Assembly (NCBI GenBank): GCA_050042755.1
Contig: JBHJJJ010000149.1
Span: forward strand, 1 to 28,453
DNA from: Rivularia sp. (in: cyanobacteria)
Lineage (GTDB): Bacteria > Cyanobacteriota > Cyanobacteriia > Cyanobacteriales > Nostocaceae
Length of the DNA stretch: 28,453 bases
Reading direction: 5' to 3'
Position numbers and translations under genes: made by a program. The notes under the pieces are model-generated. The model was given only the letters and a program-made list of their open reading frames with translations. It was not told where the DNA came from and ran no database searches. Positions 2,290 through 27,946 of the stretch are shown in pieces (the first letter of the stretch is position 1; every line of letters starts with the position of its first letter).

Positions 2290-2499
2290 ATAGAGATTTT
2301 TAAATGACTTGTTACTACTTGAAGAATTACAATCCTTCTCAAGGATGCCATGGCGCTGTTCGCTAGAAATCTAGGTAGAGTACTGGTGCAAAAAGAAAAT
2401 ATCAATCTAAAATGCGGTTCTCGCAAAATATGACCACTCAGTACTTTATTTTACATTCATTCCTTAATCTTAAGGAGAGATTATCTGCTTTAGCTTGGA

Positions 2500-3324
2500 T
2501 TACACCAATAAAACCTCTTCTGAAACAGGCTCAATCCCTCGATAATCTCGGCTCGCTAAAAATTCCGGACGTGGGTTTTCCACAGCAACCGGAAGATTTT
2601 CAACACTATTATAGTTAATCACGACAATGGCGCGATCGTAGGGAGACATATTAGAAGCCGAACCGTGAACACAATTCGGATGGAAAAATAGCACTGAACC
2701 TGCAGGTCCCTTGGGGGCTACAATAGAGCCATACTGGTTCACCAACCTTGCTAAGGTATCTTTATCGATCATGTACTTGAGGCTAGTAGTCATAGCTACT
2801 ATCCAGTCGGGACTATCCTGATAAGCAGAATCTTGTTGCGCTTCGGTCGTAATACTAATTACGCCCTCTTTGTGGGAACCCGGAATTAACATCAGCGGTC
2901 CGTTAAATTCATTCACCTCATCCAAGAAAATCACCGCATTTGCTATCCGGGGTGTGGGTAAACCATCTTCCTGCCATAAATAAACGTAATCCTGATGCCA
3001 TTGCCAAACTTCACCATCAAATGCTTTTTTAGCATTAATTTTAAATTGATGAACATAAATTGAACTGTTCAGAATCTGCATTATTGGTGCAACAAGCTTT
3101 GAATGTTCGGACAAAAGTCTAAAAACTTCTTTTTCTTTATGAACGCCGTGAACCATCCGCACAGTTGTGCCATCTTGCTCTAGTACTTTTCCTGGCAGTT
3201 CCTTGCCATATATATCTGGCACCTCAGATTTCATTCTCTTTACTTCCTCTGGGGAAAAACAATTGGGAAAGAAGAGATAACCAAGGTCATGGTAACTTTT
3301 CAATTGTTCTGTTGTTAGTTCCAT
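2500..3324 (-). CDS. Fe(II)/2-oxoglutarate dioxygenase, PhyH superfamily, ectoine hydroxylase (EctD)-like
   Basis: Collinear with EctD as I recall it: LTTEQLKSYHDLGYLFF, IYVHQFKINAK, WQWHQDYVYLWQEDGLP (HxD iron ligands, codons 2995-2997 and 2989-2991), GPLMLIPGSH, GPAGSVLFFHPNCVHGSASN, YNSVEN. Start placed at the ATG of MELTTEQL (3324); the ORF track extends to 3354. Confidence 0.8.
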   Translation of the reverse strand: MELTTEQLKSYHDLGYLFFPNCFSPEEVKRMKSEVPDIYGKELPGKVLEQDGTTVRMVHGVHKEKEVFRLLSEHSKLVAPIMQILNSSIYVHQFKINAKKAFDGEVWQWHQDYVYLWQEDGLPTPRIANAVIFLDEVNEFNGPLMLIPGSHKEGVISITTEAQQDSAYQDSPDWIVAMTTSLKYMIDKDTLARLVNQYGSIVAPKGPAGSVLFFHPNCVHGSASNMSPYDRAIVVINYNSVENLPVAVENPRPEFLASRDYRGIEPVSEEVLLV

Positions 3325-3363
3325 AAAAAATATAAATCTCAATTTTTTTAACAATCTCAGGAC

Positions 3364-3475
3364 TTACGTAAGTGTCACAAAAGTCGGGTGGTGCCGTACA
3401 CTCCGCAGCCTCATTCCCTCGGTTCTTCATCAGTTAAAGTGACACGTGCCCCTACAAGAAAAATATGCCAGTTGC
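3364..3475 (+). mobile_element. MITE-like small dispersed repeat, copy A (about 112 bp)
   Basis: Aligns over its full length with the reverse complement of 24875-24982, e.g. ttacgtaagtgtcac.../...cccctacaagaaaaatatgccagttgc. Internal inverted heptamers gtgtcac/gtgacac. No coding capacity. Confidence 0.75.
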
Positions 3476-3518
3476 TCCCGTCCTAAATCTACCGCAAATG
3501 AGGGTATATGGTGATTAT

Positions 3519-4601
3519 TTAACTAAAAGATGCGATTTGTTCTCTATCTGCTTCTCGTGGTAAAGTACTACAAATGAAATCATATGGATTTTGTGAGTCT
3601 GTGGGACAGTACTCTAGTTCAATGCGCTCGCCGAGTCCCTCTGACTCTACTAATTTTAGCATAATCTCCAATGCTAAATGGTCTTCTAATGCCATACCCG
3701 TTGAGTCAAATACAGTTCGGCGCTGCTGCCAGGACTTAAATTCTGGCACTCTTCGCACCACTTCGAGTAAGTCAGGTCCGATTTCCGACTTTTCTAACTG
3801 CTGGCATTCCCCTTCAACCACTGCTTGTTCGGGAAAGTCTGGACAGACCAAGCTTGTCTTAAGTACAGATAAGGGCAATTCGATTTTTCCGGGAAGATCG
3901 GCACCAACAGCATTAATATGAACGTGGGGTTTGAGAGCTTCGCCACGGATAACCGGACCTGCACCAGGCTCAACCGTTGTAGCCGTGCAAAGAATATCGG
4001 CTTCCCGTTCCACTTCCTCTAAAGAACATATCCGGATCGGCAGTCCCAAGAAATCTGTTCGCAACGGTAACGAGCGAGATGCATCTGGATCGATATCGTA
4101 AACCAATACCTGCTCAAGGGCAAACACTCTACTCAAAGCGTGTAATTGAGTTACAGCCTGCGCCCCGGCTCCCACCAACCCCAAAGTACTACTCTCTGGA
4201 TGAGCCAGAATATTACTGGCAACTGCAGACGCAGCCCCAGTCCGTATAGCAGTCAAAATATTACCATCGGATATCGCCAATAAGAGACCGGTGGTGTAAT
4301 CGTAAAGGCTAATGTTAGCAACAATAGTTGGCAACCCAATTGCTTCACTATTCTTTGGTTGATAAGCGACTACTTTAATTGCAACAGACTGGTCTGTCTG
4401 TCTTTTATAGGGCATCCATTCAAGGACAGAAGGTGGCTGTATAGTTTGGAAACCTGCACGGGGTGGGTGTTCATTTAGCCCTCCAGCAGCAACCTTGAAA
4501 GCTTCTGTCAAACCAGCTATCATCTTATCCATGAGAGCATCATGCCCTATTCGCTTGATGACTGTAGAAATATCTTGAGGTCGGATTAAAAGTGTTTCCA
4601 C
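3519..4601 (-). CDS. Ornithine cyclodeaminase / mu-crystallin family NAD-dependent enzyme (ornithine or lysine cyclodeaminase-like)
   Basis: 360-aa ORF with a GTG start. Rossmann motif LGLVGAGAQAVTQL, with N- and C-terminal blocks collinear with OCD-family proteins (INAVGADLPGKIEL, VFDSTGMALED). Confidence 0.85.
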   Translation of the reverse strand: METLLIRPQDISTVIKRIGHDALMDKMIAGLTEAFKVAAGGLNEHPPRAGFQTIQPPSVLEWMPYKRQTDQSVAIKVVAYQPKNSEAIGLPTIVANISLYDYTTGLLLAISDGNILTAIRTGAASAVASNILAHPESSTLGLVGAGAQAVTQLHALSRVFALEQVLVYDIDPDASRSLPLRTDFLGLPIRICSLEEVEREADILCTATTVEPGAGPVIRGEALKPHVHINAVGADLPGKIELPLSVLKTSLVCPDFPEQAVVEGECQQLEKSEIGPDLLEVVRRVPEFKSWQQRRTVFDSTGMALEDHLALEIMLKLVESEGLGERIELEYCPTDSQNPYDFICSTLPREADREQIASFS

Positions 4602-7088: not shown

Positions 7089-9662
7089 ATGAAAGATCTA
7101 TCAGTTTTATTGACTGTAATCACTGAATATCTTGGAGAAACGACTAAAAATCAAGAAGTGCTCAGGGAGAAAGATAACAAGCACTATAATGAAGCAAAGT
7201 TTACTGTTGATAAGACGGGAGAAACTAGAGGCTTTTCGATTCAAAGCAATGCGCCCTTTGAGAAAAAACTTGATGGCAATCAACTTCAAAGTTATCAAAA
7301 GTATTTAGTAAATCCACGGCAAATTAAAGAGTCAAAAGAAGGATCAAAAAAATATCCTACCCTAGAGAGTAATCATATTTGGTTTGATGCGCTTTATGCC
7401 CTAGCCATGGAAGAAGTTCGTCAATGTTCGGTGTCTGAGATTAAAGATGGTGCCTATAATAATGGAAATTCTATCTCGGCACCTGATGGGGGATATTTTG
7501 AGACAGGTTTATTCTGGACTTATGTTTGGACAAGGGATACTTCCTATTCTGTGGATCTGAGTTTAGCTGTTATTGACCCAATTAGGTCATTAAATTCTTT
7601 AAATTTTAAGCTCTCTGAACGCCGTGAAGGAGGCAATCTTCAAATCATACAAGACACAGGCACGGGGGGTAGTTATCCCATTTCAAGCGATCGCGTTAGT
7701 TTCAGTTTTGGTTGTCGTGCTTTGTTGCGACAACTCCAAGGTAAGACGAGGGATGATTTTGCAAGTCATTCCTATGAAGCTCTCAAAAATACTATTGAAC
7801 ACGATCGTCAAGTAATCTTTGATCCCCGACATGGGCTTTACCGAGGAGAACAGTCATTCTTAGATTGGCGGGAGCAAAGTAATCCTAAATGGACTGCTGA
7901 AGATCCGGTGCAAATTGGCATGTGTAAAGCACTTTCTACTAATTGTTGTCATTTTAACGCGCTACAGTTAGCTGCTTCTTTGGCAAGGGAATTAGGTGAG
8001 CCAGAGTCAGAAAATAAGTATAAAAAATGGGCCCAGGAGTTACGTGAAGCGATCCGCACTCATCTGTATTTACCAGAAGAAAAACTCTACTCTACCTTTA
8101 TTACTACAACTTTTGCTCCAGGGGCAGCCCATCAATACGATCTATTGGGCAATGCCTTGGTTATTTTGGTTGGTATTGCTGACGAGGAACAAGCCAGTGA
8201 AATAGTTTCTAACTACCCTCATTTACCGAAAGGAGCTTCTGTAATTTGGCCTCAACAAAGGGATACCCCCATTTACCATAATCAAGCAATTTGGCCCTTT
8301 GTTACGGCTTATTGGCTCAGAGCGGCGAAAAAAGTCAAAAACGATCGAGTAGTCACCCTTGGATTAAGTTCCTTAGTTAGAGGTGCTGCCTTAAGTTTAT
8401 CGAATATGGAAAATTTCGATGCAGATACTGGGCTTGTTGAAATAGACTCGCAAGAAAAACAACCTGTAGTAAATTCTCCACGTCAGTTATGGTCGGTGGC
8501 AGGTTATTTATCGGCGATTCATGAGCTTATTTTTGGAATCAGTTGGACGGATTCAGGAATTCTCATCGATCCTTATATTACCCGTGAATTTCGTAATTGT
8601 CTTTTACCCAAGTCAAATCAATTGGTCTTAAATGGCTTGCTTTATAAGGAGCATCAACTGGATATTACAATTAATTTGCCTCCTACTACTAAAGAAATGG
8701 CAGGAGCTTATGCAGTTGGAGAAATTCGTCTTAATGGACAACAGATAAAGATCGGCTCAGAGATTATTGAATCAATGCTTGACGATCGCAATACCCTTGA
8801 GGTTAAATTAGTTGAGGGTAGTACAGAAACTTCTTCGATTAATCTTGTTACCAATCTGAAAGATTATCGATACAGATTTGCGCCTAGACCACCTATAGTT
8901 GATTCTATAATTGCAATAGATCATCAATTAGAAATAAAGTTTCATCTTGATGGTGAAAATCCTTCGGAAGTTACAATTAATGTTTATCGAGATGGAGATT
9001 TAGTTGCCCAAGGATTATCTGGACATAGTACTAGTTGGCGCGATCCAAACAGTCAGGGGACTCAATCACCTAGCTACTGTTACAACTTAGAAGCAGTTTA
9101 CATCAGTGGCGGTACGACTTCCCAACGTTCTAAACCTTTCTGTTATTGGGGAGATAATAGCGATCGCATTTATTTTGTAGATGCCGATCAATTTTCCGTA
9201 ACCGGGGGCGATCGTCCTATTTCTTCTAGACATGGTAAAAACCATTATGAAAATTGGGGTAAACCTGATGATAGTATCACAGTTAAGATAAAACCTAAGT
9301 TTGATGGTCCTCATGCTATTCAGGTAGTGGCAGCAAATGGTGCAGGCCCCATCGATACGGGAATTACTTGTGCTGTAAAACACTTGCAAATGAAAGATTC
9401 ACAAGATCAAATAGTTGCAGATGGTTATTTAGTAATGCCTCATCTTGGTAAGTGGGATCGCTGGTTAGAGTCTTCGGTTATTTATACCGAAGTGGACTTA
9501 ATCAAAAATCGAGAATACGAAATCAGTATTTTTGGTGACGAAGGAGCCATAAATATGTCAACTTTTAAACACAATGAAGAATATACAGGTGGCAAAGGAG
9601 GAACCGGAGGAGCTTACAATTATGTAAATATTGCTCAAGTAAAGTTGAATGCTTTAAGCTAA
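7089..9662 (+). CDS. Putative (alpha/alpha)6-barrel glycoside hydrolase (GH15 / glycogen-debranching-like catalytic domain) with about 270-aa C-terminal beta-sandwich/CBM-like region
   Basis: 857-aa ORF. The WxRD block FWTYVWTRDTSYS, YRGEQSFLDWRE, IWPFVTAYWL and PRQLWSVAGYL resemble (alpha/alpha)6 glycosidase signatures. No signal peptide. Family assignment is tentative. Confidence 0.55.
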   Translation: MKDLSVLLTVITEYLGETTKNQEVLREKDNKHYNEAKFTVDKTGETRGFSIQSNAPFEKKLDGNQLQSYQKYLVNPRQIKESKEGSKKYPTLESNHIWFDALYALAMEEVRQCSVSEIKDGAYNNGNSISAPDGGYFETGLFWTYVWTRDTSYSVDLSLAVIDPIRSLNSLNFKLSERREGGNLQIIQDTGTGGSYPISSDRVSFSFGCRALLRQLQGKTRDDFASHSYEALKNTIEHDRQVIFDPRHGLYRGEQSFLDWREQSNPKWTAEDPVQIGMCKALSTNCCHFNALQLAASLARELGEPESENKYKKWAQELREAIRTHLYLPEEKLYSTFITTTFAPGAAHQYDLLGNALVILVGIADEEQASEIVSNYPHLPKGASVIWPQQRDTPIYHNQAIWPFVTAYWLRAAKKVKNDRVVTLGLSSLVRGAALSLSNMENFDADTGLVEIDSQEKQPVVNSPRQLWSVAGYLSAIHELIFGISWTDSGILIDPYITREFRNCLLPKSNQLVLNGLLYKEHQLDITINLPPTTKEMAGAYAVGEIRLNGQQIKIGSEIIESMLDDRNTLEVKLVEGSTETSSINLVTNLKDYRYRFAPRPPIVDSIIAIDHQLEIKFHLDGENPSEVTINVYRDGDLVAQGLSGHSTSWRDPNSQGTQSPSYCYNLEAVYISGGTTSQRSKPFCYWGDNSDRIYFVDADQFSVTGGDRPISSRHGKNHYENWGKPDDSITVKIKPKFDGPHAIQVVAANGAGPIDTGITCAVKHLQMKDSQDQIVADGYLVMPHLGKWDRWLESSVIYTEVDLIKNREYEISIFGDEGAINMSTFKHNEEYTGGKGGTGGAYNYVNIAQVKLNALS

Positions 9663-9767: not shown

Positions 9768-11645
9768 ATGGGTGAAATTAAGGTAAAACCGAGAGTGATT
9801 GATTGCGAGACTGCCTCTAATAAAGAATACGATGTTGTGATCGTGGGAGCAGGAGTAGCCGGAGCAATAGTCGCCAAACAATTAAGCGAACAGGGAAAGA
9901 CTGTTTTAATAGTTGAGGCAGGATCTGGAAAGGATTTAACCCTTGAAGGCTATCAAAGTTACGTCGATCATTTTCATTCTGCTTTAGGAAAGGATAACAA
10001 TGCCCCTTATCCTAGAAATCCCAATGCTCCAAGTCCTAGGAGTCCTGATGTCAGCAAATTGATTCCAGGGCAGATTGATGCAAGTGCATATTTAGTACAG
10101 CGAGGACCTTTAGCCCTTGACAGTACCAATACCAGGGCTACTGGCGGGACAACTATGCATTGGGAGGGGAAAACCCCACGCATGTTACCAGGGGATTTCA
10201 AATTACGCAGTACATATGGACAAGGACTAGATTGGCCCTTTGACTATGACCATCTGATGCCCTACTTCAGGATTGCCGAGAGGGAGCTAGGGGTTTCAGG
10301 TAATGTAGAAGATCAAATAAAGCTAGGGGGGGTATATAAAGAAGACTATGTCTTCCCGATGAAAGAGATGCCTCCCTCTTACTTAGATAAGACAATTAAG
10401 GAAAAAATTGATAATAGCACAGTAGAATTGGATGGTGAAACTTATACATTAGATGTGCTGACTTTTCCCCAGGCTAGAAATGGTATACCCAATCCCGATT
10501 ACTACAAAGGTGTTGACGATTACCGCGAGGGCGATCGCTTCGATCCTGATGGACTGACTAGCGTACATCCTGTTGAATATGGTGAACGTTGCCAAGGTAA
10601 CGCCAACTGCGTGCCTATTTGTCCCGTTCAAGCGAAGTATGATGCCCGCAAAACTTTAGGTAAAGCATTTAATACCGAACGAGTGGATATACTTCCTCAG
10701 GCTGTGGCATCCAAGATTGAAATTAACCCTGAAAACAATCGAGTTACTGCCGTTCACTTTAAGTGCTATCAGGATAAGAACTCTCCGAAGCATGAAACCG
10801 GAATAGCGAAAGGTAAACTGTTTGTACTAGCAGCCAATGCAGTAGAGAATGCTCGATTGCTTCTGTCTTCAAATCTTCCAACAACCAAAAGCAGCGAATT
10901 GATTGGCAGACATCTGATGGATCACCCTTATGTACTCTGCTGGGGATTGATGCCTGAAGTGACTGGCACTATGCGAGGGCCTTTGTGTACATCAGGAATC
11001 GTAGCATTTCGTAAAGGTGATTTTCGTCACAAGCAAGGTGCATTTGCGATCGATATCCATAATGATGGTTGGGGCTGGGCAACTGGTTCTCCCGACACTG
11101 ATGTTCTTGATATTATTGATAACAAAAACAAGTACGGTAAGGGACTGCGCGAAGAACTGGTAAGTAAAATCTCGCGACAGTTATTGCTTGCTTGTATGTG
11201 TGAGTTACCTGCCGATCCCAGTAACCGAGTGACAATAGATCCCAATTATACAGATCCTTTAGGTAATTATCGCCCTGTGATATCCTTTAACATATCTGAC
11301 TACTGTAAGAGGACACTTGCTTATGCAAGATATATCTGTAGTCTGGTCTTCCAGCGCTTGGGAGCAGAGGAATATACACACTACGATCCATCTGACTACG
11401 GATATTTTACTTATGAAGGTGAGGGCTATGTCTTCCGGGGTGGTAACCACTATGCAGGCACTCATGTAATGGGTACTAGCCCAGATAATTCTGTTGTTGA
11501 CAAGCATCAGCGTTCTTGGGATCATAAAAATCTTTATTTAGTAGGCGCTGGTAGCATGCCAACCATTGGTAGTTCTAACACAACTGTCACACTTTCAGCT
11601 ATGACTTTTTACAGTACAGAGCAAATGCTCAAAGACTTAAATTAA
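9768..11645 (+). CDS. GMC-family FAD-dependent sugar/polyol dehydrogenase catalytic subunit with Cys-rich 3Fe-4S-type motif
   Basis: Strong RBS aaggag. FAD fold DVVIVGAGVAGAIVAKQL...VEAG. C-terminal GMC block HYAGTHVMGT...NLYLVGAGSMPT. Motif C-QGNAN-C-VPI-C-PVQAKY at 10590-10640. Confidence 0.85.
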   Translation: MGEIKVKPRVIDCETASNKEYDVVIVGAGVAGAIVAKQLSEQGKTVLIVEAGSGKDLTLEGYQSYVDHFHSALGKDNNAPYPRNPNAPSPRSPDVSKLIPGQIDASAYLVQRGPLALDSTNTRATGGTTMHWEGKTPRMLPGDFKLRSTYGQGLDWPFDYDHLMPYFRIAERELGVSGNVEDQIKLGGVYKEDYVFPMKEMPPSYLDKTIKEKIDNSTVELDGETYTLDVLTFPQARNGIPNPDYYKGVDDYREGDRFDPDGLTSVHPVEYGERCQGNANCVPICPVQAKYDARKTLGKAFNTERVDILPQAVASKIEINPENNRVTAVHFKCYQDKNSPKHETGIAKGKLFVLAANAVENARLLLSSNLPTTKSSELIGRHLMDHPYVLCWGLMPEVTGTMRGPLCTSGIVAFRKGDFRHKQGAFAIDIHNDGWGWATGSPDTDVLDIIDNKNKYGKGLREELVSKISRQLLLACMCELPADPSNRVTIDPNYTDPLGNYRPVISFNISDYCKRTLAYARYICSLVFQRLGAEEYTHYDPSDYGYFTYEGEGYVFRGGNHYAGTHVMGTSPDNSVVDKHQRSWDHKNLYLVGAGSMPTIGSSNTTVTLSAMTFYSTEQMLKDLN

Positions 11646-11741
11646 TCGATATCTATTAGGTTTAAGAGTCTTGTATCTTAAGCAAAAAAGTGGGAAAAAG
11701 TTCAACCTTATATTACAGAATCGGAAATTGCCAGGGGAGAT

Positions 11742-12947
11742 ATGGTAAGCACAAACAAGGATAATTATGCCATTTCAAGTATTGAGAACTTGCGCGAGTA
11801 TCTGTATTGGGCAATGAGTATTGAACATTCAACGATTCCGCCTTACATCATGGCACTCTACTCGATTAAGCCCGGTACAAATCTACAAGCATTCCAAATA
11901 CTTCGCTCTGTTGCCGTAGAAGAAATGCTGCACCTAACTCTAGCAGCCAATGTCTTTAATGCTGTTGGAGGAAAGATCGAAAATACTTTGAGTGGTTCTG
12001 ACTTTATCCCAGAATATCCAACCACCATAGCAACGGGAGAAGACGACTTTGAAGTTTCCCTAGAGAAATTTTCTAGGCAAAGTGTAGAAACTTTCCTCAA
12101 CATTGAACGTTCAAAACATGTGCCTGAAGATAAACCATTAGTGGGAAAAAGAGATCCCAAAAAAAGGTGGTTGACACGTGTTCCTAAGACTGGAAAGGAG
12201 GAAGGTTTTAGTTTCTATAGCATTGGGCTGTTCTATGCAGAGATTATCCGTGGTTTGAATGCCTTGTATAGAGAGCATCGTGACGATCTGTTTTGTGGCG
12301 ATCCTCAGCGGCAAATTACACCTGATTATTACTTTGATGGTGGAGGGGAAATTATCCCAGTTAAGAATCTACGCTCTGCAATACGTGCTTTGAAGATGAT
12401 TCAAGATCAAGGAGAGGGTTCGAGACAAGGAAGTATCTATGATGCAGAAAGAGAGCTTTCCCATTATTGTCGTTTTGAACAATTGTTGATCTTGGATACA
12501 AAGTATAGATCGGACTTGAAGAAAAACTTGCAAGATGAATTGGGTGATGGCTGGAAAGATGTATTGGGTGAAGACTGGAAAGAAGATGTGGGTGGAGACG
12601 GCTGGGGGCAATATTACCGGATAGATAGAGATAATCCAGAGAAATCCGATAAGCCATTTCATCCTACTGGTGAAAAATTTAAAGTTGATTGGGACGCTGT
12701 TTATCCCGTTAAGGACAATGCTAAGCTAAGTGATTACCCAGAAGGATCTGAGTTGCATACTGCAGCGAAGGAATTCCAGTCCAGCTACAAAGATTTCCTT
12801 GGTAAGATTGAGTACTCCTTTGATGGGCATCCCGATCGTTTAATTCCCGCAATCGGTGGCATGTTCAAGCTTAAGTATGGGGCTGAGCGGATAATGAAAA
12901 ATCCGATTCCAGGAGAGGAAGGAGTTAATGGCGCACCAATCTTCTGA
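11742..12947 (+). CDS. Ferritin-like (putative diiron) domain protein
   Basis: 401-aa ORF. N-terminal SIEHSTIPPYIMALYSI block typical of ferritin-like domain proteins. Two ExxH motifs: EMLH (codons 11922-11933) and ELSH (12453-12464). RBS ggggag. Confidence 0.65.
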   Translation: MVSTNKDNYAISSIENLREYLYWAMSIEHSTIPPYIMALYSIKPGTNLQAFQILRSVAVEEMLHLTLAANVFNAVGGKIENTLSGSDFIPEYPTTIATGEDDFEVSLEKFSRQSVETFLNIERSKHVPEDKPLVGKRDPKKRWLTRVPKTGKEEGFSFYSIGLFYAEIIRGLNALYREHRDDLFCGDPQRQITPDYYFDGGGEIIPVKNLRSAIRALKMIQDQGEGSRQGSIYDAERELSHYCRFEQLLILDTKYRSDLKKNLQDELGDGWKDVLGEDWKEDVGGDGWGQYYRIDRDNPEKSDKPFHPTGEKFKVDWDAVYPVKDNAKLSDYPEGSELHTAAKEFQSSYKDFLGKIEYSFDGHPDRLIPAIGGMFKLKYGAERIMKNPIPGEEGVNGAPIF

Positions 12948-12952
12948 TTAGA

Positions 12953-13097
12953 CTAGGGCGTATTTTCAAACCCTAACCGCTCTCAGGCTAAAGCCTGGAG
13001 CTATACAAAAGGTGCCCTTAAAGGGCTAAAAACCCTAATTTTTCTAGCCCGCTGCCACGGCGAATTTAGTGACGGCGAATTTGAAAACACGCCCTAG
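12953..13097. mobile_element. MITE-like element (145 bp) with 18-bp terminal inverted repeats
   Basis: Left TIR ctagggcgtattttcaaa (12953-12970) against right TIR tttgaaaacacgccctag (13080-13097), 17/18 complementary. Internal direct repeat acggcgaattt x2. Non-coding. Begins 6 bp after the stop at 12945-12947. Confidence 0.75.
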
Positions 13098-13134
13098 CCT
13101 TTAGACATAAACGCCGTTCAAAAATTTGACTGTG

Positions 13135-13162
13135 CAATCTCCGTATTCAAAAACGGAGATTG
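13135..13162. other. Perfect 10-bp stem / 8-nt loop hairpin in the leader of the small-subunit gene
   Basis: caatctccgt-attcaaaa-acggagattg. No T-tract on either side, so its function is unclear. Confidence 0.6.
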
Positions 13163-13218
13163 TTAAAGGCTGTCAAAACTGTGAGAGGAACTGAAATTTT
13201 TGTAGAGGAGAACAACCA

Positions 13219-13830
13219 ATGGGCACTAATAAAACTAAGACTGAGTTGATAGAGTATTTTCTAGATTTCTCAGCAGTGATAACTGGCTTTTATAAGTTTT
13301 ACTTACGAGGAACAGGTCAAGTTGACTCATACTACGACACCGTTAATAATATTATTGGCACGGAAATGTTTGAGGGATTGTTAATAACATTCCATAATCT
13401 TGATCTGAAAGCGAAAGCTGAGGGTGATAACTCAGTTTTGAATGAAGGGATTCTCCGTGATATCCTGGGTTCTGAAAAATTCGGTGCGATCTCTCGCAAC
13501 ATCATCAAACTCTGGTATCTAGGTACCTGGTATGAACTGCCTACATCATGGCGGGAAAAATTTGGTAATAAGGAGAAAGATATAAACTTTGTTGTAAGTC
13601 CACAAGCTTATAATGAAGGACTTTTGTGGCCTACCCTTAGCGTTAATCCTCGTGCTGCAAAAGCACCGGGATATGGCACCTGGGCTGAGGCTCCTTATGA
13701 ACCCCCTAAAATATACGATATTAAGGATACTAACTCACTCGAAGATGTGAAAAGCGTAGATTCTGACATTTTGAAGTCGAAACCAGTTGACATTGGCACC
13801 AAAGTATTAAACAAAACAAAATCTAACTGA
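13219..13830 (+). CDS. Small (gamma-like, 'hitch-hiker') subunit of FAD-dependent sugar dehydrogenase complexes (sorbitol-DH small-subunit family), lacking a Tat signal
   Basis: FLDFSAVITG, IIKLWYLGTW and VVSPQAYNEGLLWPTL...APGYGTWAEAP are collinear with the Burkholderia FAD-GDH gamma subunit as I recall it. RBS gaggag. No RR signal at the N-terminus. Confidence 0.6.
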   Translation: MGTNKTKTELIEYFLDFSAVITGFYKFYLRGTGQVDSYYDTVNNIIGTEMFEGLLITFHNLDLKAKAEGDNSVLNEGILRDILGSEKFGAISRNIIKLWYLGTWYELPTSWREKFGNKEKDINFVVSPQAYNEGLLWPTLSVNPRAAKAPGYGTWAEAPYEPPKIYDIKDTNSLEDVKSVDSDILKSKPVDIGTKVLNKTKSN

Positions 13831-13853: not shown

Positions 13854-14543
13854 ATGAACATTCAACCTTGGTTTCGTAAACTTTCTACTATTGCCCTGAT
13901 AATTATCGTTAGTTTAACGATATTTACTGCACCATCTTATGCTTTTGTCCCTAGCGATAAAGTACAGATCAATGTAAATCACTTGAAGAAGACAAATGAA
14001 TGTAATCAATGCGATCTATCAGGGGCAAATTTGTCTGGAGCCGATTTATATGGCAGTGCGCTGCTTGAAGCCAATCTATCGGGAGCAGATCTATCTGATG
14101 CCTTACTGAATGATGCCAAGCTAAAAGGAGCGAATTTATCGGGAGCGAATTTATCTAATGCCCTGCTCATGGGCATAACCTTGTCGGAAGCCAATCTAAC
14201 AAACGCTAATTTATCCAGTGCAGATTTGTACAATGCTCTTATGGAGAGTACAACATTGTCAGGAGCAGATTTAACAGGTGCCGATCTAACCTCGGCTATT
14301 TTATCTGAAACGGATTTGTCTAATGTTGATGGTGAAAATGTCAATTTAGATCAAGCAATTTTAAATAAAGCTAATCTATCGGGAGCAAATTTTACCCACG
14401 CTAAAATGAGAAATGCTAGGTTAGCCGAAGCCATACTTGAAGGAACCAAGCTGTTTGAGGCCGATCTATATCGTGCTGTTATGCCTGACACTACTATCTA
14501 TAAGGGAAAGGGAGATGTGTCAAAATTCGGTGCTTATCAGTAG
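13854..14543 (+). CDS. Pentapeptide-repeat protein with N-terminal signal peptide
   Basis: Hydrophobic N-terminus ending PSYA|F, followed by about 30 consecutive A(N/D)LSx pentapeptides (ANLSGADLYGSALLEANLSGADLSDA...). Confidence 0.9.
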   Translation: MNIQPWFRKLSTIALIIIVSLTIFTAPSYAFVPSDKVQINVNHLKKTNECNQCDLSGANLSGADLYGSALLEANLSGADLSDALLNDAKLKGANLSGANLSNALLMGITLSEANLTNANLSSADLYNALMESTTLSGADLTGADLTSAILSETDLSNVDGENVNLDQAILNKANLSGANFTHAKMRNARLAEAILEGTKLFEADLYRAVMPDTTIYKGKGDVSKFGAYQ

Positions 14544-14753: not shown

Positions 14754-15854
14754 ATGTTAAAACAAATTAGACGATTGTTGATTTCTGTTGTTATTTTGAT
14801 GTTATTCGGGATTTCAACTCCACTGCCAGCCAAAGCTGTGACAATCGATCCTCTGACGGGTGAGGATAAGTTGCCTTTGAAGATTTGCCGAGTCGGAGAA
14901 GCCCCTAAACCCCCCATTTTTGAACGCAAAAAAGTTCATTTGGGCATTACTCCCACAGGTTGGAGCAATAGTGACGATCGTAGTATCGATTTGGTTCCTC
15001 CTATCCCTTACCAGCAGATTCTAAGTGAAATGGAACTGGCTGGCTTCAAAGGCTCGCAAGTATCTCCAAAATATCCTGCAGACATCGATATTTTGCATGA
15101 CGAGTTAGAATTGCGTAAGTTAAAGATTTCTGAACCTTGGGTAGGAACTAAGTTCACTACCAATAGGAGCGAAGTTAGCAAGGAAATCTTCCATCAACAG
15201 ATGGACTATATGAAGAGCCTGGGTGATAGGGCTAGCAAGATCATTGTGGTGGCTGAACTAGGTGGTGCTGTCCATCAACAACCTGTTGAACCCTTAAACA
15301 ACAGACCTATTTATAGCGATGAACAATGGGATAAATTGACTGCAGGATTAAATGAGATAGGAAAAGAAGCACATGAAGCAGGGATGCGCTTAGTTTACCA
15401 TCCCCATGTGGGAACAGGAGTGGAAACGAGAAAGGATATCGATCGGTTAATGAACAACACCGATCCTAAATATGTCAAATTACTCCTTGATACTGGTCAT
15501 CTTTACTACGCAGGAGTCGATCCTCTTAAAGTTACCGAAGATTACGCCTATCGCATCGGGCACGTTCACTTAAAAAACATTCGTAAGGACAAGTTAGATG
15601 ACTCTCAAAACAAAAAGCTAAGCTTTATAGAGTCTATCAAAAATGGCGTATTTACCGTTCCTGGTGATTGCAGTGGGGTGATTGAGTTTGAGCCAATTTT
15701 CAAAGCACTTGCCAATTTCAAAGATAAAAAAGGAGAAGATAAAACATATAAAGGATGGTTAGTAGTTGAAGCCGAACAAGATCCAAACAAAGCCGAACCT
15801 TTGCTATACGCCCAAACAGCTCGTAAGTATCTACATCAAGTTACTGGTTTGTAA
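14754..15854 (+). CDS. Inosose dehydratase (IolE)-like xylose-isomerase-fold TIM-barrel enzyme with N-terminal signal peptide
   Basis: From HLGITPTGWSNSDD onward it is collinear with B. subtilis IolE as I recall it (VYHPHVGTGVET, DRLMNNTDPK, LLLDTGH, GVFTVPGDC, YKGWLVVEAEQDPNKAEPL). A 58-aa N-terminal extension begins MLKQIRRLLISVVILMLFGISTPLPAKA|V. Confidence 0.85.
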   Translation: MLKQIRRLLISVVILMLFGISTPLPAKAVTIDPLTGEDKLPLKICRVGEAPKPPIFERKKVHLGITPTGWSNSDDRSIDLVPPIPYQQILSEMELAGFKGSQVSPKYPADIDILHDELELRKLKISEPWVGTKFTTNRSEVSKEIFHQQMDYMKSLGDRASKIIVVAELGGAVHQQPVEPLNNRPIYSDEQWDKLTAGLNEIGKEAHEAGMRLVYHPHVGTGVETRKDIDRLMNNTDPKYVKLLLDTGHLYYAGVDPLKVTEDYAYRIGHVHLKNIRKDKLDDSQNKKLSFIESIKNGVFTVPGDCSGVIEFEPIFKALANFKDKKGEDKTYKGWLVVEAEQDPNKAEPLLYAQTARKYLHQVTGL

Positions 15855-16799: not shown

Positions 16800-17816
16800 A
16801 TGAGTAACCCTTCATCTTTGCCCGATATTTACCTCAGCTTTTTCATGTTTACTACAGATATGCAACCCGACGATCCAAAATATCGGGAAATCGTCGTTAA
16901 GCATATTAAAGAGCTACAAACATACGGTTATAAAGGGTTTGAGTTTCCCATTGCCCCCAAGTTTCCCCTAGATAGTATCAATGATGTAGAAAGCTATACT
17001 CGCTTGCGCGATTATTTAGATGAGCAAGGATTATCAGATGTTGCAATTGCGACTAACGTCATGGCAACGCGAACCTACGATCCAAGTTCTCCTTATCAGA
17101 AACAACGCCACGAAGCTTTAGAATATCTGAAATCAAGAGTTGATATTACTCACACAATGAGGGGAGAAATTATGATGGGTCCCATTGTGATTCCCTATGG
17201 TGATTTTCCTACCACAGATTTTAACGATCCTATTTGGAGCGATGAGTTACAGGATGAGTTAGCCCAACGTTATAAAAATGCTCATCATACTCTTAATCAA
17301 CTAGGTGAATATGCAGAGAAGAGAAACGTTAAATTAGCGATCGAACCGATCACCCATTGGGAAACTCCTGGGCCTAACAAATTGTCTCAATTAATTGACT
17401 TTCTTGAAGGGGTGAAGAGTAAACATGTGGGTGTTGTGATCGATAGCGCCCACGAAATTCTTGATGGAGATGGACCAGAAAAGTTTAAAGAGCATGTTGC
17501 CTATTTAGCTAAAGAGGGACGGCTTCATTATATCCAAGTTTCTCCTCCCGATCGCGGAGCCGTTGACACCAGTTGGATACCTTGGCAATCTTTCTTAAAA
17601 CCGGTTTTACAAGTTTATCAAGGACCGATTGCCGTAGAAATCTTTAATGCCATTCCTGCCTTTCTCAACGGCTTGCGTCTGACGCGACGCAAGTTTTGGA
17701 TACCAGGCGAGGATAAGGAAAATAAACCCTATCCCAGTGCTTATGAAACGGCTAACAACGCTATCCAAGCCACTCAAAGAGAACTGACGAAAATTCTCGA
17801 AAATTCTAACTGTTAA
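16800..17816 (+). CDS. Xylose-isomerase-like TIM-barrel protein (sugar phosphate isomerase / ketose 3-epimerase-like)
   Basis: RBS aaaggag. E-D-H-E metal-ligand pattern in the blocks KLAIEPITHWE, VVIDSAHE, HYIQVSPPDRG and IAVEIFN. Confidence 0.7.
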   Translation: MSNPSSLPDIYLSFFMFTTDMQPDDPKYREIVVKHIKELQTYGYKGFEFPIAPKFPLDSINDVESYTRLRDYLDEQGLSDVAIATNVMATRTYDPSSPYQKQRHEALEYLKSRVDITHTMRGEIMMGPIVIPYGDFPTTDFNDPIWSDELQDELAQRYKNAHHTLNQLGEYAEKRNVKLAIEPITHWETPGPNKLSQLIDFLEGVKSKHVGVVIDSAHEILDGDGPEKFKEHVAYLAKEGRLHYIQVSPPDRGAVDTSWIPWQSFLKPVLQVYQGPIAVEIFNAIPAFLNGLRLTRRKFWIPGEDKENKPYPSAYETANNAIQATQRELTKILENSNC

Positions 17817-17864: not shown

Positions 17865-19919
17865 ATGATCGTAGCTAGAAGATTAACTCAACGAATACGG
17901 ATTATCCCATTTTTTCTCACCATTGTTCTCGCCTTAAGCCTAGTTTTGAGCGGGTGGGAAGAAGCGATCGCCGATACTGCGATCGGTAGTAAAGAAACAA
18001 TGGGAGCCTGGGAAACTATTCCCATGCCACCCCAGAAGGATCGTATGCAATCTGTCCATACCATTCTCTTGCCCAATGGCAAAATTTTAATGGTTAGTGG
18101 TAGCAGTTTTCGCAGCCGCTACTATATTGATGAGAATGGTAAAGAGCATTTTAAAGAGGGTGTAGATCCTAATAACCAGGAGTTTTTTAATAATTCTGGC
18201 TTATTCGATCCAGAAACAGGAACATTTGAACACATTCCCTCGCCTCCTTCACTGTTATTCGATGAAGAACTAAAAGCTAATACAGGCAACGATCTGTTTT
18301 GTTCTGGTCACGTGCAGTTATCTAATGGTAATGTGTTATTTGTGGGGGGAACAGCACGTTATTACCCTGGAGGGGCTTTTAGCGGATCGAAGTGGTTGCA
18401 GCTTTACAACTGGCGCACGGGAGAATGGTCAAAACTCGACCAGATGAAAGATGGGCGTTGGTATCCCAGTCAAATCACTCTCCACGATGGTAAGGTAGCA
18501 ATTTTTTCCGGTTTAACATTTGGCACACCAAACGAAGTTAATCCCAGTTTAGAAATTTACGATCCCGAAACCCAAAAACTTCAGTACATCGATCTCACAC
18601 GAGTGAGAAATAGTCCCTTTAACACTAAAGTGGAAAATGAATATGACCAGGATCTTTACGATAGCATTGACCTTTATCCTCGCATCTTTTCTTTAGCCGA
18701 TGGAAGGCTTTTGATTAGCGGAGATGATGCAGGTATTGCCGGGGTATTGGTGCCTCATTTCAGTAAAAAAAGCTATCTAATGACTATTAATGATACTGGT
18801 TCGGGGGAAGTGTCTGTTAGTTTTGAAGTGGGGCCCGACAGAATAGAAACAACTAAAGCCTACGGAACTGGACTACAAATTCCCGATTCTGAAGACGTAT
18901 TGTTATTTGGTGGAATTATCGGCACCAATAGCATTAGTTATGGACGGCGTGGCAATACTAAAAACTTTCCTAAAGGCAGTCGAGTATCTACCAGTTTACA
19001 ACATTGGATTTCCCCAGAAAATAGTGGAGAGAAGAACGGTAAATGGGAAATAGTTGATAATTTCCTGGATAAACCGAGAGCTAATTTACAGGCTGTGATC
19101 TTACCCACCAAAGAAATTTTAGTAATCAATGGAGGTGAATTTCCCGAATACAAACCCGTCTATGAACCCTTGTTGTTGACTCCCGATAAAGATAAAGATA
19201 AAGAATCGGGCTATAAAAAACGATCGCTTAATAAGGCTCATCTTCCCAGACTCTACCATAATGGAGCAGTTTTATTGCCAGACGGGCGGGTATTTATTGT
19301 GGGAGGAAATGCCAACCGAGCTGGAATTGAAGAAAACGGAACGGTTCATGTGGATGTTTTGGGCGATCCTAAGACTTTTTTCACTACCGCGAAGTTAACA
19401 AATAAATCAGGCGAGGAAGAGAAATTTGACATCGATACTTTCTACCAAGATCCACAACATTATTACGTTGAGAGCGATGCGGGGCATTGCGACAAAGAAC
19501 TTTGCGATAAGGAACCTTTTGTTCCCGCAGAAATTTGGCAACCAGAGATTTTTAGTCCTCCCTATTTACAAAACCCAGGAGAGCGTCCTGAAATTATCAG
19601 CGCACCTGATACCCTCAAATATAATCAATCTAGCACGATTGAAGTTGACGATAAGATCAACAAAAATGGTTCTCTGGTTCTGGTGAAACTAGGATCTGTT
19701 ACCCATTCATTTGATTATGGACAACGGTTAGTTGATTTACATGCAAACCGGTTAGTTGATTACCCAGCAGGTGATTATGAGAACCTTAAATATCGAAGTA
19801 CAGTAAACTTTAAAACGCCCAGCAACGCCCATCTATATCCGCCAGGATACTACATGATGTTTTATATCAATGACTCTGGCGTACCTACCATCGCCAAAAT
19901 TATCCAACTTGAAGCGTAA
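17865..19919 (+). CDS. Copper-radical oxidase (galactose oxidase / glyoxal oxidase family, Kelch beta-propeller + C-terminal DUF1929-like domain), exported or membrane-anchored
   Basis: Cross-link Cys in DLFCSGH (18300-18302), Tyr in GRWYPSQ (18462-18464), Tyr-His in RLYHNGAVLLPDGRVFIVGGN (19254-19259), His in VTHSFDYGQR (19704-19706). Hydrophobic N-terminus IIPFFLTIVLALSLVLSGW. Confidence 0.85.
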   Translation: MIVARRLTQRIRIIPFFLTIVLALSLVLSGWEEAIADTAIGSKETMGAWETIPMPPQKDRMQSVHTILLPNGKILMVSGSSFRSRYYIDENGKEHFKEGVDPNNQEFFNNSGLFDPETGTFEHIPSPPSLLFDEELKANTGNDLFCSGHVQLSNGNVLFVGGTARYYPGGAFSGSKWLQLYNWRTGEWSKLDQMKDGRWYPSQITLHDGKVAIFSGLTFGTPNEVNPSLEIYDPETQKLQYIDLTRVRNSPFNTKVENEYDQDLYDSIDLYPRIFSLADGRLLISGDDAGIAGVLVPHFSKKSYLMTINDTGSGEVSVSFEVGPDRIETTKAYGTGLQIPDSEDVLLFGGIIGTNSISYGRRGNTKNFPKGSRVSTSLQHWISPENSGEKNGKWEIVDNFLDKPRANLQAVILPTKEILVINGGEFPEYKPVYEPLLLTPDKDKDKESGYKKRSLNKAHLPRLYHNGAVLLPDGRVFIVGGNANRAGIEENGTVHVDVLGDPKTFFTTAKLTNKSGEEEKFDIDTFYQDPQHYYVESDAGHCDKELCDKEPFVPAEIWQPEIFSPPYLQNPGERPEIISAPDTLKYNQSSTIEVDDKINKNGSLVLVKLGSVTHSFDYGQRLVDLHANRLVDYPAGDYENLKYRSTVNFKTPSNAHLYPPGYYMMFYINDSGVPTIAKIIQLEA

Positions 19920-19994
19920 TTCTTCATTTAACAAAGTTATCTGTCAAAGACAAGCAGAAGAAGCTCCTTGTATGGGTTAAAGCAACTATAGTAT

Positions 19995-20035
19995 AGACAA
20001 GGTAATTTAGCTTGCTCCCGATACTTACCTTGTCT
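19995..20035. other. Perfect 11-bp inverted repeat with 19-nt spacer between the oxidase and peroxidase genes
   Basis: agacaaggtaa (19995-20005) and ttaccttgtct (20025-20035), 40 bp upstream of the ATG at 20075. Confidence 0.6.
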
Positions 20036-20074
20036 CCAAGAGGTAGCAAAATTAAATCAAAAGGTTACAAACAT

Positions 20075-21574
20075 ATGGCACTCACAGAAGCAGATTTAAA
20101 AAATCTTCCTAAAGACGGAATCGATGCAGAAGATCCGGGTAAGTATGAAACATTACTTAAAGATTTACAGGGAAATATTTTGAAATCACATGGAAGAGAG
20201 CACAGCGTGCATCTGTTTTTAAAATGGAAATCCGATCGAGTTTATCATGCGAAAAAATGGATAAAAGACTTTGCAACAGATCCAGATCCCGAAGATAAAC
20301 AAGCCGAAGATAAAAATAAGGATAAATATAAAATATATGTAACATCAGCTTATAGGCAAGCACAAGAAGCGGCACATTTTAGAGTAACTAAAACAGAAGG
20401 GGAGATATTCGCCAATGTTTTCTTCAGTCGTAAAGGCTATGAAGCATTAGGATTCGATCCCTTTGATGTTCCTAAAGATCAGCCCTTTACTATGGGGATG
20501 AAGAATACTCGAGTTAAAGAAATGTTAAAAGATCCGGAGGTTGAAGAATGGGAAAAAGGGTATCAAAGTGATATCGATGCCTTAATTTTAATCGCCGATG
20601 ACGATCTAAACATATTATTGCAAGCTGTCAACCGAATTACTCCAGGGTTGCGTGAAGTTGCCGAAATTGTTCACCGAGAAGATGGCTTCGTGCTTAGAAA
20701 CGAAAATAATCAAGTCAGAGAACATTTTGGCTTCGCGGATGGGGTAAGTCAACCCTTATTTCTCAAACGAGACATTGTTAAAGCTCGAACCAACGATTGT
20801 AATTTTAGTCAATGGGATCCTAGAGCTTCCTTAGATATTATTCTGGTTAAAGATTACAATGGCAAAACAGAAGATAGTTATGGCAGCTTTTTGGTATATC
20901 GTAAATACGAGCAAGCTGTTCAAACTTGGGTTAAGTATGTACTGGAACTGACCAAAAAGTTGGGTAAAAATCCGAACAATATGGCGGATGCTCTCTACGC
21001 CGGTGCTTTAGTAATGGGACGTTTCCATGACGGAACTCCAGTTACTAAGTCTGATATCCCGACTCATGCTGCTGCCCCAACTAATAACTTTAATTATGAT
21101 GCTGATATTAAGGGGATGAAATGTCCATTTCAAGCTCATACACGGAAAACTAATCCTAGAGGAGATACAGGGAGAGTAGAGTCTTCTCAAAATTACGATG
21201 TAGATTTTGCGATCGAGAAAAGCCGTCGTATTGCTCGTCGAGCCATTAGTTATGGCCAGAGTAAAGACATCATGAACACTCCAGATACAGGCTCGGGATT
21301 ACTCTTCCTTTGTTTTCAAGCTGATATTGCCAAGCAATTTAATTTTTTACAGGATAGATGGGCAAATCCCGATCGCTTCGTGAAAGTTGGTGTAGGTACC
21401 GATCCGGTAATTGGGCAACCCGGTTGCAACCAGGATTCACCTGTACAACATAAATGGCCTCAAAAATGGGGTGAAGCCGATACCGTAGATTATCCTTTTC
21501 AGAAATCGATTACGATGAAAGGTGGAGAATATTTCTTTGCTCCGAGCATCAGTTTTCTCCAAAGTTTAGTTTAG
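20075..21574 (+). CDS. DyP-type haem peroxidase
   Basis: LQGNILKSHGR N-terminal block. GxxDG motif FGFADGVSQPLF (Asp codon 20738-20740). Proximal-His block FQAHTRKTNPRG (His codon 21137-21139). LLFLCFQADI near the C-terminus. Start set at ATG 20075 rather than the TTG at 20012. Confidence 0.85.
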   Translation: MALTEADLKNLPKDGIDAEDPGKYETLLKDLQGNILKSHGREHSVHLFLKWKSDRVYHAKKWIKDFATDPDPEDKQAEDKNKDKYKIYVTSAYRQAQEAAHFRVTKTEGEIFANVFFSRKGYEALGFDPFDVPKDQPFTMGMKNTRVKEMLKDPEVEEWEKGYQSDIDALILIADDDLNILLQAVNRITPGLREVAEIVHREDGFVLRNENNQVREHFGFADGVSQPLFLKRDIVKARTNDCNFSQWDPRASLDIILVKDYNGKTEDSYGSFLVYRKYEQAVQTWVKYVLELTKKLGKNPNNMADALYAGALVMGRFHDGTPVTKSDIPTHAAAPTNNFNYDADIKGMKCPFQAHTRKTNPRGDTGRVESSQNYDVDFAIEKSRRIARRAISYGQSKDIMNTPDTGSGLLFLCFQADIAKQFNFLQDRWANPDRFVKVGVGTDPVIGQPGCNQDSPVQHKWPQKWGEADTVDYPFQKSITMKGGEYFFAPSISFLQSLV

Positions 21575-27850: not shown

Positions 27851-27946
27851 GAAATTTCTTCAGTCAATATTAGTTTTTACCGGAGTTACTCCGTTAAATT
27901 CATTGCCACGCTTTTGTGTCAGAAGAAGAAAACACTACTCAACTTA

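Follow-up and report, generated by a model that had tools for sequence, protein, structure and literature searches.

The DNA considered here, the whole 28,453-nucleotide (nt) contig JBHJJJ010000149.1 of the cyanobacterium Rivularia sp. (hereafter the window), encodes in direct succession on its forward strand a flavoprotein of the GMC family, a ferritin-like protein of family PF12902, and a small protein distantly related to the accessory subunit of sugar dehydrogenases that carry flavin adenine dinucleotide (FAD) and a 3Fe-4S cluster. The evidence assembled on these genes comprises gene content, homology, residue conservation, synteny, natural gene fusions and co-evolution. We give an even chance to the reading that the three products are the subunits of one dehydrogenase without export signal, with the ferritin-like protein in the place of cytochrome c as electron acceptor of the 3Fe-4S cluster. 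The core genes are listed below together with their key residues and, where a counterpart exists, the aligned residues of the FAD-dependent glucose dehydrogenase (FAD-GDH) of Burkholderia cepacia (BcGDH).

9768-11645, forward strand: alpha-like catalytic subunit, a GMC flavoprotein (GMC_oxred_N/C) of 625 amino acids (aa) with a predicted 3Fe-4S cysteine triad
10158-10160, forward strand: His131, by alignment the counterpart of the covalent-FAD residue His105 of BcGDH; invariant
10482-10568, forward strand: insertion peculiar to this clade (~27 aa, residues 239-267), just ahead of the Fe-S loop and missing in 6a2u_B and 7w2j_A
10590-10640, forward strand: cysteine block CQGNANCVPICPVQAKY, with C275, C281 and C285 as predicted 3Fe-4S ligands from the alignment to 6a2u_B
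11445-11450, forward strand: Asn560-His561, with His561 as the counterpart by alignment of BcGDH's catalytic His476; invariant
11577-11579, forward strand: Asn604, aligned with Asn519 of BcGDH; invariant
11742-12947, forward strand: ferritin-like protein of 401 aa (PF12902, Pfam E 5e-64), the proposed electron-accepting subunit
11823-11828, forward strand: Glu28-His29 in helix A, candidate metal ligand; invariant in 81/81 sequences
11919-11933, forward strand: E60-E61-M-L-H64 in helix B, the first ExxH motif (EMLH at 11922-11933); invariant in 81/81
12240-12242, forward strand: Glu167 in helix C, candidate ligand; Glu in 57/81
12453-12464, forward strand: E238-L-S-H241, the second ExxH motif; His241 in 81/81, Glu238 in 69/81
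12486-12599, forward strand: acidic, Trp-rich insertion of ~38 aa (DTKYRSDLKKNLQDELGDGWKDVLGEDWKEDVGGDGW), specific to the subclade of the window's ferritin-like protein
12948-13218, no strand: spacer between the ferritin-like and small genes, unusually long at 271 nt
13219-13830, forward strand: gamma-like small subunit of 203 aa, by profile searches a divergent relative within the PF12318 superfamily, without signal for twin-arginine translocation (Tat)

The initial annotation of this DNA had assigned the first of these genes to the GMC fold, and the assignment holds. The Pfam models GMC_oxred_N and GMC_oxred_C match the reading frame along with FAD Rossmann models, and its top relatives in the PDB are the alpha subunit of BcGDH (6a2u_B, E 5e-75) and the catalytic subunit of Gluconobacter fructose dehydrogenase (FDH; 7w2j_A, E 1e-64), with pyranose oxidases ranking next at merely ~1e-9 to 1e-11. 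Within BcGDH's alpha subunit, Cys212, Cys218 and Cys222 ligate the 3Fe-4S cluster, His105 provides the covalent link to FAD, and His476 and Asn519 serve in catalysis (PMC6719666). The cysteine-rich block of the window protein had been proposed as the equivalent cluster site, with alignment to the FAD-GDH alpha subunit as the check. Run here, that alignment pairs CQGNANCVPICPVQAKY without gaps with CCGNNNCMPICPIGAMY of 6a2u_B and places C275, C281 and C285 column for column on Cys212, Cys218 and Cys222. Conservation of H131, C275, C281, C285, N560, H561 and N604 is 100% among 75 orthologues, and nine more divergent GMC paralogues linked to small-subunit genes retain the cysteine triad and the covalent-FAD histidine as well. 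As the aligned residues are invariant, FAD and a 3Fe-4S cluster are the expected cofactors; judged by its sequence, the protein agrees on every point with the FAD/3Fe-4S dehydrogenase family and is a predicted member of it. Retention of the cysteine triad and the redox residues in orthologues and paralogues suggests that electron exit via the cluster is under selection despite the lack of a cytochrome. The ~27-aa insertion, conserved among the 75 orthologues in its motif PQxRNGxPNxxY and at positions downstream, is a possible docking surface.

The product of the second gene, described initially as a ferritin-like protein of 401 aa with two ExxH motifs, proved to be just that: PF12902 is matched with 216.6 bits against a cut-off of 22.3 and 219 of 221 profile positions are covered, while a scan of NCBIfam returned no equivalog. 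Its AlphaFold2 (AF2) model (pLDDT 84.7, pTM 0.86) is mostly helical, with long helices at residues 14-41, 48-74, 161-183 and 210-224, and finds its sole significant fold match in the structure 3hl1 (Foldseek E 2e-7, TM 0.69 on target), in which alignment recovers the E-M-L-H of the first motif. Residue conservation was read from an alignment of 81 family sequences drawn from many phyla. Invariant in all 81 are E28, H29, E60, E61, H64, E122, Q223, E225 and H241, and the Glu and His residues of this set (all except Q223) are spread across successive helices of the model. Where Ala occupies position 167, residue 163, one turn away, is a carboxylate (Gln in a single case), and residue 170 is frequently a carboxylate too. 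The order of Glu in helix A, ExxH in B, Glu in C and a further ExxH follows that of a di-metal carboxylate site, and binding of metals by these residues is the most likely interpretation of the pattern. The acidic, Trp-rich insertion, predicted as helical in the AF2 model, is gapped in >95% of the 81 sequences; beside the window protein, just its closest relatives P0094 and P0098 have it.

For the third gene, the relationship to the hitch-hiker subunits of FAD dehydrogenases was claimed from short motifs. Searched as a single sequence, the small protein is invisible, without match in Pfam, NCBIfam or the PDB, and its 92 close homologues are all unannotated and, wherever an organism name is given, cyanobacterial. 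A profile search of 1.84 billion representative proteins returned 858 related clusters. A profile of 30 cyanobacterial sequences missed the PDB small subunits and gave only two weak PF12318 matches, and it took a broader profile of 118 sequences to recover the relationship. PF12318 (FAD-SLDH) is matched by 35 of these 118 profile-detected relatives (best E 6e-8), and three of the 118 carry PF12902; the FDH small subunit 7w2j_B is the top PDB match of the family profile (E 0.025), and hhalign against it (88% probability, E 3e-6) pairs FLDFSAVITG with FMQLSAFATG and IIKLWYLGT with IIRAWYSGV. From the PF12318, PDB-profile and hhalign matches, the small protein is therefore understood as a divergent relative of the hitch-hiker subunits, so that the claimed match stands at the level of profiles. 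The AF2 model (pLDDT 71.7) is helical over residues 7-139 and of low confidence from 142, with residues 160-203 as a disordered tail; a Foldseek search of the PDB with this isolated model, which may differ from the bound form, gave no match, the gamma and FdhS chains included.

The absence of a twin-arginine signal, also noted initially, is evident from the N-terminus of the small protein, which has neither an RR motif nor a hydrophobic segment, and position 13219 is the first possible start after a stop, leaving no room for an earlier one. A clear Tat-like N-terminus is found in merely 2 of the 148 relatives listed. Three small-subunit homologues (P0044, P0090, P0214) begin with MNIxLWFRK and so resemble the N-terminus of the pentapeptide-repeat protein encoded next to the module. 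In a metagenome-assembled genome (MAG) of Cyanobacteriota (L036, 11093-12142), the small subunit is fused via a hydrophobic segment to such a pentapeptide-repeat protein; the fusion hints at membrane tethering, or may be a sequencing artefact. The 271-nt spacer upstream of the small gene, which measures -59 to 126 nt in 31 other loci scored, holds a 21-nt inverted-repeat pair (12950-12970 and 13080-13100) that looks like a small insertion of the miniature inverted-repeat transposable element (MITE) type, and a perfect hairpin with a 10-bp stem (13135-13162).

The organisation of the three genes extends far beyond the window. Scanning one genome per species with the ferritin-like alignment revealed at least 586 stretches that encode a relative, the best 80 of which were fetched with their flanks; synteny counts refer to those loci that have enough flanking sequence. 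The loci represent at least eight phyla (Cyanobacteriota, Actinomycetota, Alpha- and Gammaproteobacteria, Bacteroidota, Planctomycetota, Acidobacteriota, Chloroflexota and Myxococcota) and include the genera Rhizobium, Vibrio, Pseudoalteromonas, Catenovulum and Methylovulum as well as, among Bacteroidota, Aquimarina. Nearly without exception, the 80 loci have the GMC gene first, the ferritin-like gene second and the small gene third, and an IolE-like TIM-barrel gene usually comes next. Immediately upstream of the ferritin-like gene there is a GMC gene in 72 of 73, which answers in the affirmative the question of co-occurrence raised by the initial annotation, and all 72 upstream GMC proteins have the cysteine triad (71 in the strict pattern, L024 in the variant CQGNANCVSIC); the small gene follows directly downstream in 73 of 74. 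Independent look-ups found the identical gene order in Nostoc sp. C117, in another complete cyanobacterial genome, and on plasmids of Gloeothece and Rhizobium, annotated there under no names other than 'GMC family oxidoreductase / ferritin-like protein / hypothetical protein / myo-inosose-2 dehydratase / TIM barrel protein'.

Further links join the ferritin-like gene to the small one. In 10 of 31 loci scored, the stop of the former and the start of the latter share 4 nt, as they also do in the Rhizobium annotation, and clean fusions of the two proteins occur in P0217 (534 aa), P0218 (543 aa) and P0125 (522 aa), the latter two adjoining intact GMC genes. Such natural fusions argue for a physical association of the components. 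Another apparent fusion, P0178, was dropped as evidence, its contig containing many split genes with probable frameshift errors; P0238, P0247, P0315 and P0328 look frameshifted and were likewise not taken as fusions. Distance matrices of the three core proteins correlate with r of 0.81-0.87, or 0.70-0.73 as partial correlations controlling for the adjacent IolE-like enzyme, and the ferritin-like protein correlates with IolE, controlling for GMC, at 0.21; these figures come without a test of significance, the sequences being related by phylogeny. The three genes also appear to move together: between the window and L018 (the MAG 'Cyanobacteria bacterium P01_D01_bin.50'), the genes from the pentapeptide-repeat protein to the GH63-like hydrolase are 70-83% identical (most of them 77-83%), and the core is 65% (GMC), 58% (ferritin-like) and 52% (small) identical, which suggests from sequence comparison that the core was replaced or exchanged as one cassette.

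Paralogous sets, some of them incomplete, are found as well. Four actinobacterial loci (L044, L049, L053, L060) carry directly upstream of the main set, at ~4.5-8 kb in each locus, a second, more divergent set (~35% identity) in the order small, GMC, ferritin-like, and L040, L054 and L055 have an extra small/GMC pair without second ferritin-like gene. All of the paralogous GMC proteins linked to small subunits keep the cysteine triad in the alignment. The most distant small homologue, P0092 (L008, 8493-12479), occurs in the canonical order of small gene, then GMC gene; upstream of the pair is the gene of an exported protein of 495 aa, which lacks Pfam domains and has one CxxCH, at the C-terminal end, and downstream comes a BBE/FAD_binding_4 oxidase gene. 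The 495-aa protein is not ferritin-like; it may be another type of partner for this enzyme family.

That no multihaem cytochrome c is encoded in the window, as first noted, was borne out when all six frames of the 28 kb were examined: none of the stop-to-stop segments of 50 aa or more has a CxxCH. A cytochrome c partner close to related modules, considered initially as a point that would speak against a replaced architecture, is scarce in the same way, a reading frame with multiple CxxCH motifs occurring within 10 kb in merely 1 of the 80 loci.

The neighbouring genes place the module in a setting of carbohydrate catabolism:

7089-9662, forward strand: (alpha/alpha)6-type glycoside hydrolase directly upstream of the GMC gene (weak Pfam matches to Bac_rhamnosid6H, GDE_C and MGH1-like)
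13854-14543, forward strand: pentapeptide-repeat protein (Pfam) with N-terminal signal or anchor (hydrophobic N-terminus)
14754-15854, forward strand: IolE-like TIM-barrel enzyme (TIGR04379) of keto-sugar or inosose dehydratase type, with Sec signal peptide
16800-17816, forward strand: second xylose-isomerase-like TIM barrel (PDB 2qw5, E 9e-159; in 41/64 loci)
21614-24661, forward strand: GH63/MGH1-like glycoside hydrolase marking the cluster's distal end (Pfam MGH1-like_GH, E 3e-23)

The IolE-like enzyme passes the equivalog cut-off of TIGR04379 (318.6 bits against 290), has the PDB IolE structure 9zmu as a relative (E 2e-60), and is encoded in 58 of the 64 loci among which the second TIM barrel was counted; the latter's structural relative, 2qw5, was deposited only as 'Xylose isomerase-like TIM barrel'. 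Glycoside hydrolases of the (alpha/alpha)6 type (GH15-, GDE- or GH63-like) are frequent beside the module in other loci, and relatives of the distal GH63/MGH1-like gene occur in 20 of 64. PDB searches with the two large glycoside hydrolases of the window gave no useful relative by which the substrate might be narrowed down; a glucoside-derived sugar is probably used. Of the 80 loci scanned, 18 add to the module a decarboxylase-like thiamine diphosphate (TPP) enzyme of ~550 aa and a hydrolase of the metallo-beta-lactamase (MBL) fold, always found together, and so does L090, the locus on the Rhizobium plasmid (L046, L047, L051, L063-L077, L080, L087, L088, L090 and L093, the last with the TPP enzyme only, at the edge of the locus); the pair hints at a step on an alpha-keto acid later in the pathway. 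The pentapeptide-repeat protein is a companion of the module specific to cyanobacteria. Cyanobacterial clusters add a galactose/glyoxal-oxidase-like protein and a DyP peroxidase (17865-21574 in the window), that of Gloeothece (L089) also DJ-1/PfpI and VOC-family proteins, which points to peroxide and reactive-carbonyl chemistry around the cyanobacterial pathway.

Elsewhere the window, whose sequence recurs identically in two ENA metagenome contigs, carries typical cyanobacterial genes. An iron-stress locus on the reverse strand (26795-28453) comprises a flavodoxin gene (27947-28453) and an isiA-like gene of the photosystem II family that is split in two reading frames (27335-27850 and 26795-27301); a strong Rfam match to the antisense RNA IsrR (130 bits, 27250-27436, forward strand) spans the break in the isiA-like gene. 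Two reading frames with FeoA domain are located at 25420-25767 and 26003-26374. At 1504-4601 on the reverse strand, genes for a sulfotransferase, a dioxygenase of the PhyH family and a protein resembling ornithine cyclodeaminase may represent an unrelated set for small-molecule modification.

Considering this evidence together, we propose a working mechanism in which the three genes would give one signal-less enzyme complex. The alpha subunit would oxidise a sugar or sugar derivative at the covalent FAD and pass the electrons singly to the surface 3Fe-4S cluster. The small subunit, having lost its role in Tat export, would bind alpha beside the cluster, as it does in BcGDH, and serve as a structural adaptor. 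In BcGDH, gamma packs beside the 3Fe-4S cluster (PMC6719666), and since it adjoins the cluster there, a partner tethered to gamma would be placed near the electron exit. The ferritin-like protein, in some organisms covalently fused to the small subunit, would thus be held at the site of the cluster and accept electrons in place of a multihaem cytochrome c. Its invariant Glu and His residues would most likely bind a di-iron or Mn/Fe centre, and this centre would reduce O2, either as an oxidase or in a further oxidation of the sugar. The (alpha/alpha)6 glycoside hydrolases are envisaged to supply the substrate, and the IolE-like enzyme and the second TIM-barrel enzyme to process the keto-sugar product. 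In its fullest form, the proposal describes a new class of soluble three-component sugar oxidase or oxygenase, with electrons running from FAD to 3Fe-4S, on to the di-metal centre of PF12902 and finally to O2, which is reduced to water or used in a second sugar oxidation; we hold this extended version to be somewhat less probable than the exchange of electron acceptor as such. The claim of a replaced architecture put forward in the initial annotation withstands each of the refuting checks named there that can be run on sequence: alignment, synteny, scarcity of cytochromes and natural fusions speak for it. The interpretation as a whole, by which the set would be a new electron outlet or a coupled dehydrogenase-oxygenase, is partly supported.

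A number of observations weigh against the proposal. The only structural relative of the ferritin-like protein, 3hl1, is itself uncharacterised, and the scores of Dps, ferritin and Mn-catalase against the AF2 model are all non-significant in Foldseek. Two of the candidate ligands, Glu238 (85%) and Glu167 (70%), are not invariant. Domains of PF12902 occur, by the names of the source proteins, also in VioB-type proteins, and because VioB-type proteins are haem enzymes, the cofactor of the ferritin-like protein could be other than a di-metal site. Operon linkage, fusion to gamma and co-evolution are equally expected for a tightly bound partner that has no redox function. Finally, the GMC, ferritin-like and small proteins are without signals, whereas the cyanobacterial IolE-like enzyme and two other proteins of the cluster are exported, and this combination of a signal-less core with exported neighbours is a poor fit to a pathway in a single compartment. 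The Sec-type signal peptide of the IolE-like enzyme (examples being ...LPAKA|V and ...LPANA|A) is present in all cyanobacterial loci and in Methylovulum (L009-L036, L062) and missing in other phyla, and the pentapeptide-repeat (13854-14543) and galactose-oxidase-like (17865-19919) proteins of the window carry N-terminal signals as well. Two readings offer themselves, a cyanobacterial pathway divided between two compartments or a core that gets to the compartment of its neighbours by some other route. Of the earlier suggestion that the set is probably cytoplasmic, the part that concerns the three signal-less core proteins agrees with these data, and the signals on the IolE-like, pentapeptide-repeat and galactose-oxidase-like proteins complicate it.

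Alternatively, the ferritin-like protein could be a separate enzyme of the pathway, for example an oxygenase that depends on O2, or a hydrolase, with the keto-sugar or aglycone as substrate, perhaps loosely associated with an alpha/small dehydrogenase that delivers its electrons to a general acceptor of the cell such as quinone or ferredoxin. Many oxygenases have ferritin-like folds, nothing fixes the destination of the electrons, and the genomic setting is clearly that of a multi-enzyme catabolic cluster, in which the glycoside hydrolases and the two TIM barrels are joined, in 18 of 80 loci, by the TPP enzyme and MBL-fold hydrolase. We nevertheless regard this option as unlikely: the ferritin-like protein co-evolves far more with alpha and the small subunit than with the adjacent IolE-like enzyme, it is found fused to a small subunit that has no catalytic role of its own, and its gene sits between those of two subunits in loci that conserve no gene for an alternative acceptor.

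A little less probable again is a protective or maturation function, in which the ferritin-like protein would scavenge H2O2 or superoxide formed by the flavoenzyme, in the manner of an Mn/Fe catalase or rubrerythrin, or would donate iron to the exposed 3Fe-4S cluster or act as its chaperone. There is a precedent in Nesocodon nectar, where a GMC alcohol oxidase is functionally paired with a ferritin-like catalase; the nectar protein, however, belongs to a different ferritin-like family, that of the desiccation-related proteins (PMC8812537). The weak fold matches of the AF2 model include Mn-catalase and Dps, and the DyP peroxidase and galactose-oxidase-like gene of cyanobacterial clusters suggest peroxide chemistry, but these two genes are absent from most non-cyanobacterial loci, whereas the ferritin-like gene is nearly universal, and the retained 3Fe-4S triad marks alpha as a dehydrogenase in need of an acceptor and not as an oxidase. 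Incidental adjacency, with an unrelated ferritin-like neighbour and a cytochrome c or other partner of alpha encoded elsewhere in a genome of which the window covers only 28 kb, is highly improbable and effectively refuted by synteny (72/73 and 73/74 in at least eight phyla), stop/start overlaps and fusions; a small subunit without Tat signal would, moreover, bar the complex from periplasmic cytochrome c by the known route.

The proposed exchange of cytochrome c for a ferritin-like acceptor would have importance in several respects. FAD/3Fe-4S sugar dehydrogenase complexes underlie the glucose and fructose biosensors based on direct electron transfer, and in the literature searched they appear only as periplasmic assemblies, in which the catalytic subunit is joined by a small subunit exported via Tat and by a multihaem cytochrome c. 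If true, the proposal would add a new natural electron outlet for these dehydrogenases, provide the first functional context for family PF12902 and for the structural-genomics entries 3hl1 and 2qw5, and suggest that cyanobacteria, rhizobia, actinomycetes and marine heterotrophs degrade glucosides or sugars by an undescribed oxidative route; it would also offer new soluble enzymes for sugar sensing or biocatalysis. Should the three-component oxidase be real, it would represent the first function of PF12902 and a cytochrome-free branch of the FAD dehydrogenases in hundreds of bacterial species. The conservation of the cluster in itself gives the orphan structure 2qw5 a genomic context.

Among known systems, the gamma-alpha-beta complex of BcGDH (6a2u, 8hdd) offers the closest comparison. 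The alpha subunits are homologous and share the covalent-FAD histidine, the His/Asn pair and three cysteines in the same loop, and both systems have a small accessory protein, that of the window being a superfamily relative by profile matches. In the window, however, the small subunit is without Tat signal, a gene for multihaem cytochrome c is missing, the alpha and small genes are separated by a ferritin-like gene (so that the order is alpha-ferritin-gamma as opposed to gamma-alpha-beta), and alpha has the conserved ~27-aa insertion before the Fe-S loop; Cys213, which in BcGDH forms a disulfide between gamma and alpha, is replaced by Gln. Likeness to FdhSCL of Gluconobacter japonicus (7w2j) is seen in the large subunit (E 1e-64) and in the small one, which tops the profile matches and aligns in two N-terminal motifs. 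FdhSCL and the other membrane FAD-dehydrogenases with PF12318 differ from the window in the same ways as FAD-GDH and, additionally, in that the small protein of the window stays below the Pfam thresholds. Full-text searches gave no description of a module of GMC, ferritin-like and small-subunit genes in the literature covered, most subscription journals lying outside that coverage, and within it a ferritin-like component has never been reported for FAD/3Fe-4S dehydrogenase complexes.

For the ferritin-like protein, Caulobacter CC_0557 (3hl1), also of PF12902, has the same fold and the first ExxH in common; the identity is 17%, His29 of the window protein is Leu in 3hl1, and the latter is a structural-genomics entry of unknown function. 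Several di-iron carboxylate enzymes are fed by Fe-S partners, among them alternative oxidase/PTOX, rubrerythrin, acyl-ACP desaturase, aldehyde-deformylating oxygenase and the soluble di-iron monooxygenases. The proposed logic would be analogous: an Fe-S centre delivers electrons one by one to a di-metal site, bridged by carboxylates within a bundle of helices, and the reduced site goes on to react with O2. The resemblance is one of this logic, since the ligands of the window protein match the canonical pattern in part, and as donor the flavoprotein's own 3Fe-4S cluster would stand in for ferredoxin, rubredoxin or quinol. With regard to the pathway, an IolE-family enzyme and a second TIM barrel follow the dehydrogenase as in inositol catabolism by IolG/IolE and in the elimination of 3-keto-glycosides, which fits a common scheme of oxidation to the ketone and subsequent elimination or dehydration; the oxidising step is that of an FAD/3Fe-4S enzyme as compared to an NAD-dependent dehydrogenase of the Gfo/Idh/MocA type in the IolG/IolE pathways. 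Because Tat export and multihaem cytochrome c are missing and a ferritin-like component is added, the set encoded in the window is best understood as a variant, and not a member, of the canonical gamma-alpha-beta class.

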